A stretch of 64,000 nt of DNA from an uncultured Planctomycetota bacterium (lineage in GTDB: Bacteria > Planctomycetota > PLA2 > JAEUHO01): assembly GCA_963752285.1 (NCBI GenBank), contig CAVVXN010000002.1, positions 455,116 through 519,115 of the forward strand, written 5' to 3'. Under the pieces are notes generated by a model. That model was given only the letters and a program-made list of their open reading frames with translations, made no database searches and was not told where the DNA came from. Made by a program: the position numbers and the translations under genes. Positions within the stretch are counted from its first letter, which is position 1, and each line of letters opens with the position of its first letter. Shown piece by piece: positions 11,113 through 46,857 of this stretch.

Positions 11113-12672
11113 GTGTTTCGATCCGTCTTGGTGTCGGGCTGCCTCGTGGCGGCCTGGATCCTGGCTGGGTCCCTGGCCTGGGCCGAGCCGCCTTCGGCGG
11201 GCGCGGCGCCCGCCGCGCCCGTAGCGCCTCCGAGCGCGAGCGGGCAAAACGACGCTCCGCCCCCCGGCGCGGACGCGGCGACCGCCGCCGCCGCCGCCGG
11301 GGTCTCCGACTCTGCCGCGCCGCCTCCGCCTCCGAACCCCGCGGCGAACGCCGAGGCGAGCTACGGGGGGATCACGCCCGGCATGGTGGACCGCGCCGTG
11401 CACGCCGACGCCTTCCGAAGCGAGGCGCCGCTCTGGCAGGGCCAGGCGCGCCTGCGGTACCGGGGTCGCTTCACCTCGGAGGACGACGCCTCCGACCACG
11501 ACCTGTACGCGTACCTCAAGCTGAAGTACCGCGACGAGATGCTCCCGGGCTGGTCGGCCTCCTTCCACGGCCGGGCGACGCTCGACATCGGAAGCTTCGG
11601 GAACCGCGACGGGTTCCATCCCTTCGACTCGATCACCGACACGTACGAGCACCGGCTGAACGGGCGGATCTACCACGCGTACGTGAACTACCGAAGCCCC
11701 CGGAGCCTGGTCGAGGAAGTGCGGCTCGGGCGGCAGTACTCCGACGTCGGCGAGTTCATCCGCTACGACGGCGTCCGCGCGACGAGCCGCCCCCTCGGGT
11801 GCGGTTGGTGGCAGGTGTCGGCGTTCGGCGGGGTCCCCTCGTACCTGTTCGACGACGGGCGCGAGGGCGACTGGACCGTGGGCGGGTCCGTGAAGGGCCG
11901 CCCGTGGCGCGCCACGGGCGTCACGCTGAGCTACACGCATGCTCACGACCAGAACGCCGTCTACGGCCACGTGGACGACAACTTCGTGGACCTGACGGTG
12001 GACCAGCGGATCGGCATGAACACGCTGGTCCGGGGCACGTACCAGCAACTGAACGCCGATCCCCGGGCGCTCCGCCTGATCTTCGACACCTTCTTCCCCG
12101 CGCGGGACGTCACGGTGCGCGGTTCGTTCTACTCGGTGCTCTCCTCCCAGACCGAAGCCGTGTACGACTTCGACTACTACTACGCGGAGGCGCTCTCGCT
12201 CGAGCCGTACTGGCTCGGGACGCTGGCCGTCTCGAAGGGCCTCGGCGACCTCTTCACGGTCGAGGCGGGCGTCAACGAGCGCATGCTCTACGACCAGGCG
12301 GACGAGGGCACCTTCAACCGCGAGTTCACGGAGGTCTACGGGACCGTGGCCTCCTCCGACTGGCTGCTCCGGGACCTCCGCCTCGCGCTGACCGGCGAAT
12401 GGTGGAAGGCGAGCGGCGACCGGATATGGACCGCCACGTTCGACCTCGACTGGCGCCCCTGTCCGGCGTGGCGCCTGAGGCTCGGCACCGACTACGCCGC
12501 GTACCGGTACGACCTCTTCACGAACTCCGAGCGGGTCCACGACCTCGGAGGCTTCGTGAGGGTCACGTGGCGGCCTCGCTCCTGCTGGGAGGTCGATGTC
12601 CGGCTGCGCGTGGACGACGACGACGACGGGACCTGGACGCAGCTCGACGCCGGGCTGACGTTCGATTTCTGA
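11113..12672 (+). CDS. Outer-membrane beta-barrel protein (porin component candidate of a porin-cytochrome complex)
   Basis: Track ORF with a signal peptide (SLAWA/EP) and an Ala/Pro-rich linker of about 90 aa. Amphipathic strands rich in Y/W/R/D follow. The C-terminus DAGLTFDF ends in an aromatic residue, as is typical of BAM substrates. Confidence 0.7.
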   Translation: MFRSVLVSGCLVAAWILAGSLAWAEPPSAGAAPAAPVAPPSASGQNDAPPPGADAATAAAAAGVSDSAAPPPPPNPAANAEASYGGITPGMVDRAVHADAFRSEAPLWQGQARLRYRGRFTSEDDASDHDLYAYLKLKYRDEMLPGWSASFHGRATLDIGSFGNRDGFHPFDSITDTYEHRLNGRIYHAYVNYRSPRSLVEEVRLGRQYSDVGEFIRYDGVRATSRPLGCGWWQVSAFGGVPSYLFDDGREGDWTVGGSVKGRPWRATGVTLSYTHAHDQNAVYGHVDDNFVDLTVDQRIGMNTLVRGTYQQLNADPRALRLIFDTFFPARDVTVRGSFYSVLSSQTEAVYDFDYYYAEALSLEPYWLGTLAVSKGLGDLFTVEAGVNERMLYDQADEGTFNREFTEVYGTVASSDWLLRDLRLALTGEWWKASGDRIWTATFDLDWRPCPAWRLRLGTDYAAYRYDLFTNSERVHDLGGFVRVTWRPRSCWEVDVRLRVDDDDDGTWTQLDAGLTFDF

Positions 12673-12686
12673 GGGGGGGTGGCTCC

Positions 12687-14066
12687 ATGGCCTTCTTGCG
12701 CAATGACGGCCTGTGGCGCTGGGCCATCGTCGCCGTCGCCTTCGGCGTGGTGGGGTGCGCCGTCGCGCTGAACGCCCCGCGCCCCACGATGGTTCCGGCG
12801 AACGTGTACCGCGCGCCTGCGCCCCCGCTCCCCGCCGGTCGGGCCGTTTTGGGCCCCCGCCTTCCGCACGAGAAGCACGCGGACCTCGGCCTGGGCTGTA
12901 CCGACTGCCACGGGGTGGACGAGAAGACCGGCGAGCCCACGTACCCCAAGCCCGAGGTCTGCCTCGACTGCCACCAGGACATTCAGGACGAGGCGAAGAC
13001 GCCCCCCGAGAAGCGCGTCGAGAACCTGTTCTTCGACCCGCAGGGCCTGCCGCGGTGGAAGCGCTCGATCGTGGGCTACCCGGCGGACGTCCGTTTCTCG
13101 CACAAGACCCACGCCACGGCCAACCTCGAGTGCGCCGAGTGCCACGGCAAGATGAAGGGCACGGAGCGGGTCCAGCACAAGGTCCTCCAGAAGAGCCAGT
13201 GCCTGGCCTGCCACCAGGAGCGGGACGTCTCGCTCCAGTGCGCCATCTGCCACCGCGCGACCCGCGCCGACGTGCCCCCGCCGAGCCACCAGCCCCAGAC
13301 CGACTGGGAGGTGCTGCACGGGAAGACGGTTCTCGCGGCCGAGGCCCAGGGGACGAGTTCCTCCTGCCAGTACTGCCACGCCACGTCCTACTGCAACGAG
13401 TGCCACCAGGCCCGCAAGCCGTCGTCCCACGGCTTCGACTGGGAGCGACGTCACGGCCAGCTCGTCTGGCAGGCGGGGAGCCCCGACGCCGCGAGCTGCA
13501 CCTTCTGTCATCGCGACGCCGCGTTCTGTGACGGCTGCCACCAGAACCGGAAGCCCAGCTCCCACGACCACCTCTGGGAGAAGAGACACGGCGTGCTGGC
13601 CCGCGCCGGCGACATGAGCGGCATGGCGCGGTGCACGTTCTGCCACGACAAGCCTTCCTTCTGCGAGGACTGCCACAAGGAGAACCCGCCGCGCGACCAC
13701 ACCGACATCTTCCGGACGCGGACGCACGGCATGATGGCCTCCCTCGACCGCACGCGATGCATGGTCTGCCACCAGACCGACTTCTGCGTGCGCTGCCACG
13801 AGGACACCGCACCGCGCTCCCACCGCGGGCTCTGGGCCCACCTGCGGGACACGCACTGCATGCAGTGCCACTTCCCGATCCAGCAGGAGCCCGAGTGCGC
13901 GGTGTGCCACAAGCAGAACCCCACCCACGACACCGCGCCGGACCAGCCGCCGAGCCACACGCCCGGCCTCAACTGCCGTGCGTGTCACACGCCCGTGGGC
14001 GTGGGGGGGGCGCCGCCGTTGCGGCACGTTGACAACGGGACCCCCTGCCAGTTCTGCCACCACTAA
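12687..14066 (+). CDS. 17-haem c-type cytochrome, probable lipoprotein
   Basis: In-frame ATG at 12687 (RBS GAGGGGGGG) within ORF 11799..14066. The N-terminal helix ends in VVGC, a possible lipobox. I count 17 CXXCH motifs. Several form pairs of CxxCH-x4-5-CxxCH followed by a (K/P/A)P-x-(S/D)H tail (KPSSH, PPRDH, APRSH). Confidence 0.9.
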   Translation: MAFLRNDGLWRWAIVAVAFGVVGCAVALNAPRPTMVPANVYRAPAPPLPAGRAVLGPRLPHEKHADLGLGCTDCHGVDEKTGEPTYPKPEVCLDCHQDIQDEAKTPPEKRVENLFFDPQGLPRWKRSIVGYPADVRFSHKTHATANLECAECHGKMKGTERVQHKVLQKSQCLACHQERDVSLQCAICHRATRADVPPPSHQPQTDWEVLHGKTVLAAEAQGTSSSCQYCHATSYCNECHQARKPSSHGFDWERRHGQLVWQAGSPDAASCTFCHRDAAFCDGCHQNRKPSSHDHLWEKRHGVLARAGDMSGMARCTFCHDKPSFCEDCHKENPPRDHTDIFRTRTHGMMASLDRTRCMVCHQTDFCVRCHEDTAPRSHRGLWAHLRDTHCMQCHFPIQQEPECAVCHKQNPTHDTAPDQPPSHTPGLNCRACHTPVGVGGAPPLRHVDNGTPCQFCHH

Positions 14067-14067
14067 C

Positions 14068-14171
14068 GCCGGCGCGCTGAGGGCCCCGTTCGCGGCCCTT
14101 CCTCCTCCTTGCGTGCATTCGCACGCGGCGTCGTCGTCATGACCACTCCTTGGGGCCCTCAGCGCGCCGGC
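14068..14171. repeat. 104-bp element bounded by a perfect 20-bp inverted repeat with an inner hairpin
   Basis: GCCGGCGCGCTGAGGGCCCC (14068-14087) is the exact reverse complement of 14152-14171. The 64-nt interior contains GCGTGC-attc-GCACGC (14111-14126). The element starts 2 nt after the cytochrome stop codon. Confidence 0.8.
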
Positions 14172-14190
14172 TGCGTGCGGGCGCGGCGCG

Positions 14191-14570
14191 GGGGGCTCGC
14201 GGGCCCGCCTTCGGCGGGGCCGCATCGCGGGCTTGGTGCGGGGGGCTCGCGGGCCCGCCTTCGGCGGGGCCGCATCGCGGGCTTGGTGCGGGGGGCTTGC
14301 GGGCCCGCCTTTGGCGGGGCCGCATCGCGGGCTGTGGTGCGGGGGGCTCGCGGGCCCGCCTTTGGCGGGGCCGCATCGCGGGTGTGGTGCGGGGGGCTCG
14401 CGGGCCCGCCTTCGGCGGGGCCGCATCGCGGGGTGGGGTGGGGGGCTTGCGGGCCCGCCTTGGGCGGGGCCGCATCGCGGGGGTGGTGCGGGGGGATTGC
14501 GGGCCCGCCTTTGGCGGGGCCGCATCGCGGGGGTGGGGTGGGGGGGGCTTGCGGGACCGTTTTGGGCGCT
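14191..14570. repeat. Tandem array of 7 copies plus 1 degenerate copy of a ~50-bp GC-rich hairpin repeat
   Basis: The unit is GGGGGCTCGCGGGCCCGCCTTCGGCGGGGCCGCATCGCGGGCTTGGTGCG. Units start at 14191, 14241, 14291, 14342, 14392, 14441 and 14491, with a degenerate copy at about 14543. Units 1 and 2 are identical. Each contains an 11-bp stem, GCGGGCCCGCC/GGCGGGGCCGC, with one mismatch. Confidence 0.9.
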
Positions 14571-14638
14571 CCGGGAAAGGTTTGGGTGGGGCGTCGCGTT
14601 CGGGATCATGTCGCGAACGTCGTTCGGGAGTCGGTATC

Positions 14639-16711
14639 GTGCGGCTCGCGTGGCTCGCGTGGCTCGGTGGGGTCGTCTTGGCGCTCGGGCTCTCGCTCGG
14701 GGTGGGGGTTCGGGCGGCTCGGGCGGACGACGAGGTCACCGACCAGACGCTCGAGGACCACGAGTGCCTGTCGTGCCACGGGTTTGCGAAGAACGAGGAG
14801 AAGGCGCCCTTCGTGGACGGGCGACTGTTCCTCGTCTCGGTGCACAAGGACGTCGCTTGCACCGACTGCCATGGCGACTACGAGGGCAACCATCCCCAGA
14901 AGATGGCCCCGCCCGAGTCGTGCGCCTCGTGTCACTCCGACGAGTACGACCAGGTCAAGAAGAGCGTCCACGGCGTACGGTTCCCCGGGCCCGAGGCGCC
15001 CGAGACCTCGCCCGCCTGCGGGGCCTGCCACGGGATCCACGACGTCTTCAAGCCCACGGACCGCCGGTCGCACCTGTTCCCGCTCGAGGTCCCGTTCACC
15101 TGCGGGCGCTGCCACGCGAACGAGAAGGACGGCACGCCGACGCCCGCCTCCGAGCGGCCCACGGTCGATCAGCTCCTCTCGACGCTCTACGCCGACGACA
15201 CGCACGGCGCGGCGCTCCTCAAGGCCGGGCTGGTCACGGCGCCGACGTGTGTCACCTGCCACGGCAAGCACGACATCCGGCACCCGGAGGACCCGGCCGC
15301 GTCGGTCAACCGGATGAACGTGTCGAAGACGTGCGGCCAGTGCCACGTCGGGATCTACGAGCACTACGTCGAGAGCATCCACGGCACCACGCCCCGGGGC
15401 CATCCCGAGAACAACGCGAACAAGCGGGAGCCCGCCACCTGCACGGACTGCCACACGCCGCACGGGATCGAGCGTGTGGGGCTCCACTTCAAGCTGAAGA
15501 TCATCCAGACATGCTCGCGCTGCCACGGCGAGCGCGGCCGGACGTACAAGGGCACGTACCACGGTCACATCTCGGAGATCGGGCTGGGCGGCGTCGCGGC
15601 GTGCAGCGACTGCCACACCGCGCACGACATCCTGCCGTCCAGCGACCCGCGTTCCTCCGTGAACCCCGCCCACCGGACCGCGACGTGCGCGAAGTGCCAC
15701 GAGGGCGCGACGCCCCGGTTCGCGAGCTACCTGGTGCACGCGAACCCGGACGACCCGAAGCGCTTCCCCATCCTCTATTACGCGCGCACCATCATGCGCG
15801 ACCTGATCCTGGGCACCTGGGCCCTGTGGGGTCTCCACACGCTCCTCTGGCTGTTCCGCGCGTGGAAGGACCGGAAGAGGATTCGGGCGCACATCGAACC
15901 GGTGAGCGGGCGGTGGTACCGGCGCTGGCCCTGGAGCTACCGCGCGATCCACCTCACGCTGATCTTCTCGTTCCTGCTCCTCGCCATGACCGGCATCCCG
16001 CTCCGCTTCAGCGAGGCGCCCTGGGCGCGGACCGTGTTCGACTTCCTGGGAGGGGCTGCGAACTGCCGGCTTCTCCACCGCATTGGCGCGGCCTTGACCT
16101 TCGCGTACGCCCTGGCCTTCGTCGTGATGATCGCCGTGCGCCTGGCCCGGGGCGAGCGTGGCATCTTCCGCGGGCCCTCGTCCCTCCTCCCGCGCGTGAA
16201 GGACCTCCACGACATCCGGGCGAACCTCAAGTGGTTCGTGAAGGGCGGGCACCCTCCGGCCTTCGACCGCTGGACCTACTACGAGAAGTTCGACTTCCTC
16301 GCCGAGGTCTGGGGGGTGATGTTCATCGGGATCACGGGCCTGGTCATGTGGTTCCCGATCTTCTTCACCGACTTCCTTCCCGGCTGGGGCATCAACCTCG
16401 CCAACATCTTCCACTCGTACGAGGCGCTGCTCGCGACGACGTTCATCTTCACGGTGCACTTCTTCAACGCGAACCTGCGGCCAGGGAAGTTCCCCGTGGA
16501 CCCGATGTTCCTGCACGGCCGCATCTCCGAGGAAGAGCTGCGCCACGAGCGGCCGGCCGAGTACGAGCGCATGCGCGCCGAGGGCCGCCTCGAGAGCGAG
16601 GCCCTGCCGCCGCCCAACGAGCGCGTGACCGAGCGCGCCCACATCATGGGCATCCTGCTCATGTCGATCGGTCTCGTGCTCGTCCTCCTCATGGCCAGCA
16701 CGCTTCTCTGA
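14639..16711 (+). CDS. Fusion of an 11-haem c-type cytochrome domain and a membrane b-type cytochrome domain (CbcL-like quinol oxidoreductase candidate)
   Basis: In-frame GTG at 14639 (GGGAG about 9 nt upstream) within ORF 14150..16711. There are 11 CXXCH motifs in the first ~380 aa. About 5 TM helices with conserved His follow (WGLHTLLW, AIHLTLIF, LLHRIGAAL, FHSYEALL..TVHFF). Confidence 0.85.
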   Translation: MRLAWLAWLGGVVLALGLSLGVGVRAARADDEVTDQTLEDHECLSCHGFAKNEEKAPFVDGRLFLVSVHKDVACTDCHGDYEGNHPQKMAPPESCASCHSDEYDQVKKSVHGVRFPGPEAPETSPACGACHGIHDVFKPTDRRSHLFPLEVPFTCGRCHANEKDGTPTPASERPTVDQLLSTLYADDTHGAALLKAGLVTAPTCVTCHGKHDIRHPEDPAASVNRMNVSKTCGQCHVGIYEHYVESIHGTTPRGHPENNANKREPATCTDCHTPHGIERVGLHFKLKIIQTCSRCHGERGRTYKGTYHGHISEIGLGGVAACSDCHTAHDILPSSDPRSSVNPAHRTATCAKCHEGATPRFASYLVHANPDDPKRFPILYYARTIMRDLILGTWALWGLHTLLWLFRAWKDRKRIRAHIEPVSGRWYRRWPWSYRAIHLTLIFSFLLLAMTGIPLRFSEAPWARTVFDFLGGAANCRLLHRIGAALTFAYALAFVVMIAVRLARGERGIFRGPSSLLPRVKDLHDIRANLKWFVKGGHPPAFDRWTYYEKFDFLAEVWGVMFIGITGLVMWFPIFFTDFLPGWGINLANIFHSYEALLATTFIFTVHFFNANLRPGKFPVDPMFLHGRISEEELRHERPAEYERMRAEGRLESEALPPPNERVTERAHIMGILLMSIGLVLVLLMASTLL

Positions 16712-45606: not shown

Positions 45607-46857
45607 TCATGGCGGCGCGCGCGGCCGCCCGGCCTGCCCGTGGCGCTCCCGCCCTGCGGCGGGCGTACCACGCTCCCGCCCTGCAGCGGGCTCGCCACGC
45701 GCCCGCCCTGCGGCGGGCTCTCGGCGCTCCCGCCCTGCGGCGGGTTCGCGCCGCCGCCGCCGCGGCGTCTTCCCGACCGCGCGGAGCAGCCACGCCGGCC
45801 GCTCGGGCGGCTCGCGATCCTCGGGGAGGGGCTTGGGCGCGAGGAACGCGCCCGTCGCCGCGATCACGAACAGAGGTCGCCCGTCCGTGGACCAGCACCG
45901 AAGCGCGATCATCCCCAGGTCGTAGTTCTTGTGGTGGACCACGCAGCCGTCGAAGAGGTCCTTCGCCTCCCGACCGCTCCCGTCCGCGTGCGGCCTCACG
46001 TGGCACAGCTCCGCCGCTACGCGCGTGCAGAGCCCGACCTCGCACAGGCCTCCCGAACGCCGACGGATCGCCCGGACCACCTCCGCCGGGACCTCCCGGT
46101 CCCCGGGGCGCTCTTCGGTCGGCGGAAGACGCCGCGGCCTGGGCTCCTTCCGCGTCGGGTCCCACCGTGCCCGGTACGCGTACGCGAGCACCGCCAGGAG
46201 CTGGCCGTTGTCGATCGCGCACTCGGCCTTCTTCTTCGCGATCCTGCGGCACGCCCGCAGGTCGTCCGCGGCGTCGGGTCCCACGTGCGCGACGAAGGTC
46301 GTGACGTCGGACTCCGGCGCGACGTGACGTCGCGCGGCCAGGCGGCGTCCCACGCGACGGCGGAGCGCGCCGACGCGCAAGGACCTGGCGAGGTCGAGCC
46401 AGTCGTCGCCCGCCTCGAGGTAGCGCTCCGGGTCTACGAAGACGTCGCCGAGCAGGATGGCCGCCGCGAAGGAGATCCCGCCCGCGCGGACCTCCTCCTC
46501 CAGGCCGGGCAGGCGCTCCAGGGCGTAGCCGAGCATCAGGAGCTGACGCCCCCGCGCGCCGTCGAACCCGTAGCGCTCGGAGAGCTCCCAGGTCGAGGCG
46601 GCGCTCTCCCACACGCAGGAGCCCTGCTCGTGGAGGCGGACCATCAGCTTCGCGTAGGCGATCTCGGCGTCGCCGAGCGCGCGGCTCCGGGCCCGCAGGA
46701 GCGCGATCCCCTCGGGGTCCTTCTCTCCGCGGAGGGTGCGCCGGTCGATGCGCCGCTCGGAGATCCCGCCCTCGGAGACTCCGCGCTCGGAGGGGCGGCC
46801 CTCGGAGGGGCGGCGCTCGGGGTCGCTTCGTTCGTGGAGTTCGCGTTCCGACAGCAC
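45607..46857 (-). CDS. HNH endonuclease-domain protein (DUF222-like N-terminal region); both ends repetitive, boundaries uncertain
   Basis: Track ORF. The HNH core is LCEVGLCTRVAAELCHVRPHADGSGREAKDLFDGCVVHHKN. The C-terminus has 4 EPAAGRER repeats. The N-terminus has SE(G/R)-type repeats. Confidence 0.65.
   Translation of the reverse strand: MLSERELHERSDPERRPSEGRPSERGVSEGGISERRIDRRTLRGEKDPEGIALLRARSRALGDAEIAYAKLMVRLHEQGSCVWESAASTWELSERYGFDGARGRQLLMLGYALERLPGLEEEVRAGGISFAAAILLGDVFVDPERYLEAGDDWLDLARSLRVGALRRRVGRRLAARRHVAPESDVTTFVAHVGPDAADDLRACRRIAKKKAECAIDNGQLLAVLAYAYRARWDPTRKEPRPRRLPPTEERPGDREVPAEVVRAIRRRSGGLCEVGLCTRVAAELCHVRPHADGSGREAKDLFDGCVVHHKNYDLGMIALRCWSTDGRPLFVIAATGAFLAPKPLPEDREPPERPAWLLRAVGKTPRRRRREPAAGRERREPAAGRARGEPAAGRERGTPAAGRERHGQAGRPRAPP
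45644..45751. repeat. Four tandem 27-bp repeats, each containing a CCCGCC-ctgc-GGCGGG hairpin
   Basis: Units start at 45644, 45671, 45698 and 45725 (GCTCCCGCCCTGCGGCGGG...). The period is 27 bp, in frame with the 3' end of the HNH ORF. Confidence 0.8.

Follow-up and report, generated by a model that had tools for sequence, protein, structure and literature searches.

A structured multi-copy repeat at gene ends of an uncultured planctomycete, probably a family-specific mobile element

Introduction

The stretch of DNA analyzed here (the window) comprises 64,000 nt, C2:455116-519115 of the 4.64-Mb assembly of an uncultured Planctomycetota bacterium with 73% G+C. Two multi-haem cytochrome genes in it are separated by a spacer of about 570 nt that consists of repeats, and this spacer opens with a long perfect inverted repeat. 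The locus raises the question whether the inverted repeat is a device of the cytochrome operon, a functional RNA of wider use or a piece of mobile DNA.

Structure of the inverted repeat

A repeat search and a reading of the sequence agree with the original prediction on the geometry of the repeat. The two 20-nt arms (P1 in Table 1) are 100% complementary and 64 nt apart, the repeat begins two bases after the TAA stop codon of the upstream cytochrome gene, and the predicted inner hairpin GCGTGC-ATTC-GCACGC (P3) is present. The original prediction saw no obvious target-site duplication here, and re-inspection of this copy likewise shows none. Using a per-base match probability of about 0.30 at 73% G+C and spacers of at most 100 nt, our own estimate is about 3e-4 perfect 20-bp inverted repeats per 64-kb window, so the observed repeat is far beyond chance expectation. 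RNA folding, which had been proposed as a check, showed the 104-nt unit to be far more stable than shuffled sequences on both strands, at -68.5 kcal/mol for the plus strand (z = -8.0; equalled by 0 of 200 shuffles) and -76.2 kcal/mol for the minus strand (z = -9.9).

We refer to this rod-like imperfect hairpin as the head. Two C·A mismatches in its P2 helix on the plus strand correspond to G·U wobbles on the minus strand. The left-hand conserved strand, rich in pyrimidines, resembles an anti-Shine-Dalgarno (anti-SD) sequence and matches the anti-SD core CCUCCUU. Across genera P3 covaries as GCGTGC, GCGTAC or GCGTGG, with a loop of variable length. Two findings go beyond the earlier description: this head is one of 26 copies in the genome, and it is physically joined to an array of 7.6 hairpin units of 50 nt which begins 6 nt after it.

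Table 1. Features of the cytochrome locus, in coordinates of the window
Feature	Position	Strand	Remarks	Basis
Upstream multi-haem cytochrome c gene	11799..14066	+	TAA stop 14064-14066; ORF start unrefined	
Head (repeat unit)	14068..14171	+	Rod-like imperfect hairpin, one of 26 genomic copies	blastn and covariance-model census, alignment, consensus fold, cross-genus covariation
P1 5' arm, GCCGGCGCGCTGAGGGCCCC	14068..14087	+	Includes TGA 14078-14080	
P2 5' strand, GCGGCC	14092..14097	+	Partner 14141-14146 (GACCAC)	
Conserved pyrimidine strand, CUUCCUCCUCCUU	14098..14110	+	Opposite strand AAGGAGGAGGAAG; near-invariant columns	
Every-third-position pairs	14099-14139, 14102-14136, 14105-14133, 14108-14130			
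P3 apical hairpin, GCGTGC-ATTC-GCACGC	14111..14126	+		
Conserved strand, GGCGUCGUCGUCAUG	14127..14141	+	Partner of 14098-14110 in every-third-position helix	
P1 3' arm, GGGGCCCTCAGCGCGCCGGC	14152..14171	+	19 of 19 P1 pairs with compensatory changes across genera	
Linker with motif GCGTGCGGGCG	14172..14198	+	After head in most copies	
Tandem array, 7.6 x 50-nt units	14177..14559	+	G-run spacer and hairpin GCGGGCCCGCC-TTYG-GGCGGGGCCGC	TRF
Downstream multi-haem cytochrome gene	14639..16711	+	Probable start GTG 14639, preceded by GGGAG; CxxCH frame from about 14762	

Copies, distribution and covariation

A blastn search with the 104-nt unit returned 27 matches in the genome, and a covariance model built from these matches (R1) put the number of true copies at 26. 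The copies show 76-100% identity (five of them at least 97%), and the heads are 104-112 nt long and non-coding. With a cross-genus model (R2), 24 of the 29 genomes from the same Planctomycetota family proved to contain the element, at 1 to at least 89 copies each, and all 11 genomes from the sister family lacked it. The search for further copies that the original prediction had suggested was thus positive both within the genome and across the family. The Rfam scan that it had also suggested produced no relevant RNA family: only a tRNA passed the gathering score in the whole window, and the sole match with E below 10 in a permissive scan of 13900-14700 was a chance 15-bit match to PK-BYV. The element had no match in a plasmid collection.

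An alignment of the genomic copies has an almost invariant interior, CCCTTCCTCCTCCTT-GCGTGC-ATTC-GCACGC-GGCGTCGTCGTCATGGCCACTCC. Subfamilies differ in the middle of the outer stem, each time with a matching opposite arm (...GAGGGCCCCG/GGGGCCCTC, ...GAGAGGCCAG/TGGCCTCTC and ...GAGGGCCGAG/TCGGCCCTC). The RNAalifold consensus consists of P1 (about 20 bp), a short P2 and the P3 hairpin, and 17 of its 32 pairs are doubly changed within this one genome. Covariation was assessed further with a set of 53 distinct sequences representing at least 14 genera. In this set 89.4% of cells are paired, compared with 75.0% in column shuffles (0 of 500 shuffles were as high), and 29 of the 32 pairs have changes on both sides. 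When the partners were slid by one to three columns, pairing was only 32-50%. The core is almost invariant across these genera, and the outer ends differ between them. The covariance model lets annotators mask such repeats.

An every-third-position helix

The strands flanking P3 read CUUC-N-UC-N-UCCU and CGUC-N-UC-N-UCAU, and their N positions covary as antiparallel Watson-Crick partners. Column 49 pairs with column 92 as C-G in 39 sequences and as G-C in 12; the corresponding numbers for columns 52 and 89 are 41 and 11. The swaps arise separately in different lineages. Three positions beyond the swap columns, on either side, are invariant C-G and U-A pairs. The positions between the pairs of this helix are U·C and C·U mismatches on the plus strand, and on the minus strand tandem G·A/A·G mismatches flanked by C-G. 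The energy model yields the pattern '(..(..(..(' unprompted and makes the minus strand 3-8 kcal/mol more stable in three genera. Counts of G·U and A·C in P1-P3 (34 vs 42) are uninformative on which strand is selected. Backed by independent C-G to G-C swaps, pairing at every third position represents an unusual and testable structural motif.

The minus strand also reads AAGGAG-N5-ATG ACG ACG ACG, which was examined for coding potential. The ATG is replaced by CCTG in 7 of the 26 copies. Since the P3 loop varies in length between genera and thereby shifts the frame, this is not a gene start, and no conserved reading frame was found in the head.

The cytochrome locus

The translation of the upstream gene contains many CxxCH motifs and ends in ...TPCQFCHH*. 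First among the options of the original prediction was an RNA processing or stability element between the two cytochrome cistrons; the corresponding reading is an intrinsic terminator or RNase III processing site that is specific to this operon. The position of the element between two co-oriented cytochrome genes fits this idea, as does a perfect 20-bp duplex, which is long enough for RNase III. However, 25 more copies lie behind unrelated genes, among them those for ribosomal protein S9 (rpsI), glutamate dehydrogenase, a class II aminoacyl-tRNA synthetase, acyl-CoA dehydrogenase, arginine decarboxylase, a T2SS F protein and a menaquinone-synthesis protein. Relatives also have the orthologous operon without the element. 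In the sister species of the same genus (G001), the second cytochrome gene begins 340 nt after the first with neither head nor array between them, and both are likewise missing from the orthologous intergenic region of G009, which belongs to another genus. A terminator scan of 13800-14800 found no intrinsic terminator, P1 being followed by CUGCGUGCGGG and no U-tract, and a scan of the locus for sigma-70 promoters found none. An operon-specific terminator or processing device is contradicted by the 25 other copies and the empty orthologous site, and we regard it as extremely improbable. The spacer of about 570 nt between the multi-haem genes is most likely an insertion and not an ancestral regulatory region.

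Position at gene ends and stop codons

At 21 of 24 loci, the stop codon of a co-oriented gene falls between 31 nt before the head and 13 nt inside it, and the upstream ORFs at these loci are clearly coding (GC3 of 0.78-0.98). All 24 young copies are co-oriented with the gene that they follow. Two degenerate copies, both without arrays, adjoin convergent genes, and the head at C1:411521 abuts a gene start. Eight genes terminate at the TGA within the P1 5' arm of their own head, each at a copy other than that in the window, and element sequence has replaced the last codons and the stop codon of these genes. The protein ends at C1:752109 (...LPPPPPR*) and C5:1771537 (...PFPFRPGR*) are encoded by the C-rich 5' flank together with the arm of the head, and element sequence has therefore become C-terminal coding sequence there.

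The stop codons adjoining heads are TAG in eight cases, TAA in three and TGA in three, compared with 24% TAG, 0.7% TAA and 75% TGA in the genome (p = 4e-5). CTAA, CTAG, ATAG or GTAG occurs 1-31 nt 5' of P1 in 12-13 copies, and the density of CTAG in the genome is just 0.14 per kb. TAA is the stop codon of 11 of 1472 confidently called genes (about 0.7%); three of these 11 precede a head, all three in the context CTAAC.

Two other explanations of these positions were considered and rejected. A replication-strand bias finds no correspondence in GC skew, which is uncorrelated with head orientation and too weak to define replichores. A SECIS element or other recoding signal after UGA is at odds with relatives that carry CTGG for CTGA and with adjacent stop codons that are mostly TAG or TAA.

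Target sites and the element of the sister species

In the sister species G001, the head lies inside a 236-nt unit that has terminal inverted repeats and is flanked on both sides by a duplicated (C/G)TAG. The consensus is CTAG-TGTGCCGTGCC...(head)...CAGGACA-CTAG, or with longer ends CTAG-TGTGCCGTGCCGGACGTTCC...(head)...GCGACNCAGGACA-CTAG. Similarity among 20 copies starts and stops exactly at the flanking tetranucleotides. The outer ends, TGTGCCGTG... and ...CAGGACA, form the short inverted repeats TGTGCCG / TGTCCTG, and the presence of GTAG on both sides of two copies indicates a 4-bp duplication. In 12 of the 20 copies a co-oriented gene uses the left TAG as its stop codon, in four a convergent gene uses the right CTAG, and in two both hold; about a quarter of the copies are opposite in orientation to the gene whose stop codon they occupy. 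Other genera present a similar picture with different outer sequences. Judged by its sequence, the 236-nt unit is a MITE of the classical type with TAG stop codons as its landing sites. Some derivatives in G001 have the palindrome collapsed to CGGCGCGCCG with the outer parts intact.

The copies in the genome of the window lack these outer inverted repeats. Here the P1 arms (CGGCGCGCTG.../...CAGCGCGCCG) terminate the head and constitute its terminal inverted repeats, and the linker after the head is similar to the sequence that opens the right-hand portion of the element in the sister species. No clear target duplication was found in this genome: there is no TAR within 110 nt after the array of the window copy, and a TAR lies 27-76 nt past the array in just 5 of 11 composites. 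The simplest reading is a target of the TAG/YTAR type, for which stop codons are the main source in a genome of this kind. The element would land on gene ends because TAG, and especially CTAG, is rare at 73% G+C except as a stop codon. What looks like stop-codon "recognition" by a mobile element could thus be explained by a TAG/CTAG target that is nearly confined to gene ends.

Tandem hairpin arrays and the composite element

Tandem hairpin repeats follow 24 of the 26 heads, and two degenerate heads have none. The units are mostly 46-60 nt long and consist of a G-run spacer and a GC hairpin with a TTYG loop. The stems differ in sequence between arrays and keep their complementarity. According to TRF and a hairpin scan, a head stands at the 5' end of every array of the head-linked type. 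The loci C2:348380 and C5:2072345 are collinear throughout head, linker and array while their flanks are unrelated, and the composite has therefore been copied as a unit; no direct repeat is visible at the ends of these two composites. A common 3' "tail" module after the arrays was also considered and was found at two loci only.

Two loci have unusual arrangements. At C5:1771537-1772005, three tandem heads are spaced at 183 nt, each followed by the same 79-nt spacer with a GCGCGC hairpin in place of an array, and the first of them provides the TGA of the upstream gene. At C1:410950-411624, two facing heads with arrays and a shared "tail" between them make up a super-palindrome of about 670 bp that reaches from a gene end to a gene start.

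Mobility of the element

Orthologous sites differ in occupancy. The cytochrome site is empty in the two relatives described above. The site after rpsI carries a head in 2 of 25 genomes, namely this genome and G019 of a different genus, and is free of it in G001 and 22 others; insertions therefore recur at like sites and are not inherited. The original prediction had listed an RNA processing or stability element, a protein-binding cruciform and a miniature inverted-repeat element, and the last of these options gains support because the element is multi-copy, orthologous sites are empty and the sister species' version has terminal inverted repeats with a (C/G)TAG duplication. We consider it probable, although far from certain, that the inverted repeat is P1 of one copy of a new, family-specific, non-autonomous mobile repeat similar to MITE, BOX and ERIC elements, which inserts at TA-containing stop codons and is carried in 3' UTRs. 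In its mode of action, a rod-shaped head of about 110 nt (P1, P2, the mismatch-rich helix and P3) would travel together with the linker and an array of 50-60-nt GC hairpins. It would be moved in trans by a DDE-type transposase with a target choice like that of IS5 or IS630, and once inserted it would be co-transcribed as part of the 3' UTR of the upstream gene. Such mobile repeats may explain the content of many long, repeat-rich 3' intergenic regions in this uncultured, GC-rich planctomycete family.

Neither this genome nor G001 yielded a transposase-bearing parent; both are incomplete MAGs (89% and 80% complete). Pairs of P1-like 12-mers 0.5-6 kb apart were examined as the ends of an autonomous parent, and they do not extend as inverted repeats. 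Left ends in G001 that lack a head were examined as possible transposase carriers and are instead truncated or head-deleted copies. A metagenome scan for an empty site in close strains returned only a relative of 65% identity. Contigs from DNA metagenomes are short, end within the repeat and reveal no polymorphism.

Another possibility is a REP/REPIN-type element moved as single-stranded DNA by an HUH enzyme (RAYT or IS200/IS605-like), with the better-folding strand and its tandem G·A zipper as the substrate. The long imperfect hairpin with compensated stems has a REPIN-like shape, the minus strand folds better by the 3-8 kcal/mol given above, no clear target duplication is seen in this genome, and the genome does encode one Y1_Tnp protein. 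This sole gene, at C1:103535-103858, belongs to a 373-aa ORF that is IS200/RAYT-like with a long C-terminal extension. Its flanks, however, contain neither head nor hairpin sequence. The copies also lack the GTAG or CGTC tag, no tetra- or pentanucleotide is fixed on their 5' side, and their arrays run head-to-tail, whereas REP dimers are arranged head-to-head (PMC3733652). Moreover, HUH elements are not known to make terminal inverted repeats with a 4-bp duplication such as those in the sister species. Movement by an HUH enzyme therefore seems very unlikely to us.

Possible roles at the RNA level

One observation stands against the mobile-repeat reading in its plainest form: the interior is the most conserved part and the termini vary between genera, which is the reverse of what transposase recognition alone would produce. 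A palindromic CTAG target also fails to explain the co-orientation of the 24 young copies, which implies that RNA-level selection or function is at work. This co-orientation, the conservation of the interior throughout the family and the preserved mismatch pattern of the central helix are all left unexplained by simple "selfish DNA". An effect on the structure, stability or processing of the 3' UTR is possible, and it is favoured by the strict co-orientation with the upstream gene. Within the mobile-repeat reading, the stable rod and the hairpins would most likely act as a passive 3'-end structure (an exonuclease barrier, a processing site or a transcriptional insulator) and not as a regulator specific to the cytochromes.

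The core of about 110 nt could alternatively be a functional RNA, either domesticated or hitch-hiking. As a stop-proximal module of 3' UTRs, it would have its P1 melted by terminating ribosomes, and the exposed CCUCCUCCU and GUCGUCGUC might pair with purine-rich Shine-Dalgarno sites or with the G-run spacers of the array; or it could, after processing, yield an anti-SD small RNA that acts in trans, comparable to CcsR/"cuckoo". Besides the near-invariant core with its differing outer ends, this explanation would account for an orientation that in this genome follows the upstream gene and not GC skew, for a stop codon within the ribosome footprint of P1 in most copies and for the match of the left strand to the anti-SD core. 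A fold of the whole UTR pairs the left strand with the G-rich spacers, and CcsR/cuckoo RNAs, which are derived from 3' UTRs and carry CCUCCUCCC motifs, offer a precedent (PMC8034643, PMC4615179). On the other hand, positions differ between species, copy numbers range from 0 to at least 89 among genomes of one family, and the sister species has about a quarter of its copies in the orientation opposite to the gene at whose stop codon they lie. The G·U and A·C counts reveal no strand preference, the energy model prefers the strand opposite to the one required, and Rfam holds no match. On this evidence we consider a functional RNA unlikely as the primary explanation.

More speculatively, the invariant core may constitute a novel nucleic-acid module whose structure is defined by the every-third C-G helix, with a GA zipper on one strand and pyrimidine mismatches displaying CCUCCUCCU on the other. 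Unwinding of the outer stem by a terminating ribosome could then link translation termination to what becomes of the mRNA 3' end or to downstream expression, and the mobile chassis and the hairpin arrays would be mere vehicles. We think this proposal quite unlikely.

Comparison with known repeats

The mobile-repeat reading, the best supported of those considered, makes this a new family whose closest architectural counterparts are the modular BOX elements and the ERIC and Correia elements. BOX elements of Streptococcus pneumoniae, built as boxA-(boxB)n-boxC, are modular, non-autonomous and intergenic and have no transposase of their own. The element described here shares with them a structured unit combined with a variable number of tandem sub-units of about 45-50 nt and the prediction of stable hairpins in the transcript. 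Unlike BOX, to which no sequence relation is known, it has its tandem units 3' of a single head and not between two end modules, it keeps a strict position at stop codons, and conservation of its core extends throughout a bacterial family. ERIC/IRU and Correia (NEMIS) elements are, like this one, imperfect palindromes of about 100-150 bp in transcribed intergenic regions at positions that differ between species. They duplicate TA-containing targets, as does the sister species' version, and may affect the stability or processing of mRNA. In contrast to them, the copies in this genome have no terminal repeats except P1 and no clear target duplication, and conservation is in the interior and not at the termini; the every-third-position helix and the attached tandem hairpin arrays are further differences.

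IS5 duplicates YTAR, and IS630 inserts into CTAG. Insertion sequences of the IS5 group and the IS630 family, together with their MITEs, resemble the sister species' copies in being bounded by (C/G)TAG and having short terminal inverted repeats, and the tetranucleotides just 5' of 12-13 copies in this genome conform to the same pattern. The assignment to IS5 or IS630 is made by target pattern only, because no transposase gene with matching ends was found. REP, BIME and REPIN sequences are similar as short, GC-rich extragenic palindromes that lie downstream of genes, occur in clusters, have compensated stems and have been proposed to stabilize mRNA 3' ends. They differ in their GTAG/CGTC tag, in the absence of head-to-tail arrays and in their association with RAYT. 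CcsR/"cuckoo" RNAs (alpha-r14) have in common with the head an anti-SD-like pyrimidine motif, an origin as structured RNA from the 3' region of genes and multiple copies. Their CCUCCUCCC motif is in hairpin loops, whereas the element described here has a single such motif, placed in a partly paired strand of its interior, and its dispersed copies follow about 25 unrelated genes, with no Rfam match. Integron attC sites (RYYYAAC...GTTRRRY, with cassettes and an integrase) were rejected as a model: the ends are CGGCGCGC/GCGCGCCG, and the copies are dispersed behind housekeeping genes.

Other hairpin-forming repeats occur in the same genome. At C5:851006-851978 there is an array of another hairpin type, with periods of 41 nt and 95 nt and CTCCCCGC-TGC-GCGGGGA hairpins, which has no adjoining head. 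A 27-nt tandem repeat of 4.4 copies at positions 45644-45761 of the window contains a small hairpin, CGCCCTGCGGCGGGC, and may belong to the GC-hairpin repertoire of this genome.
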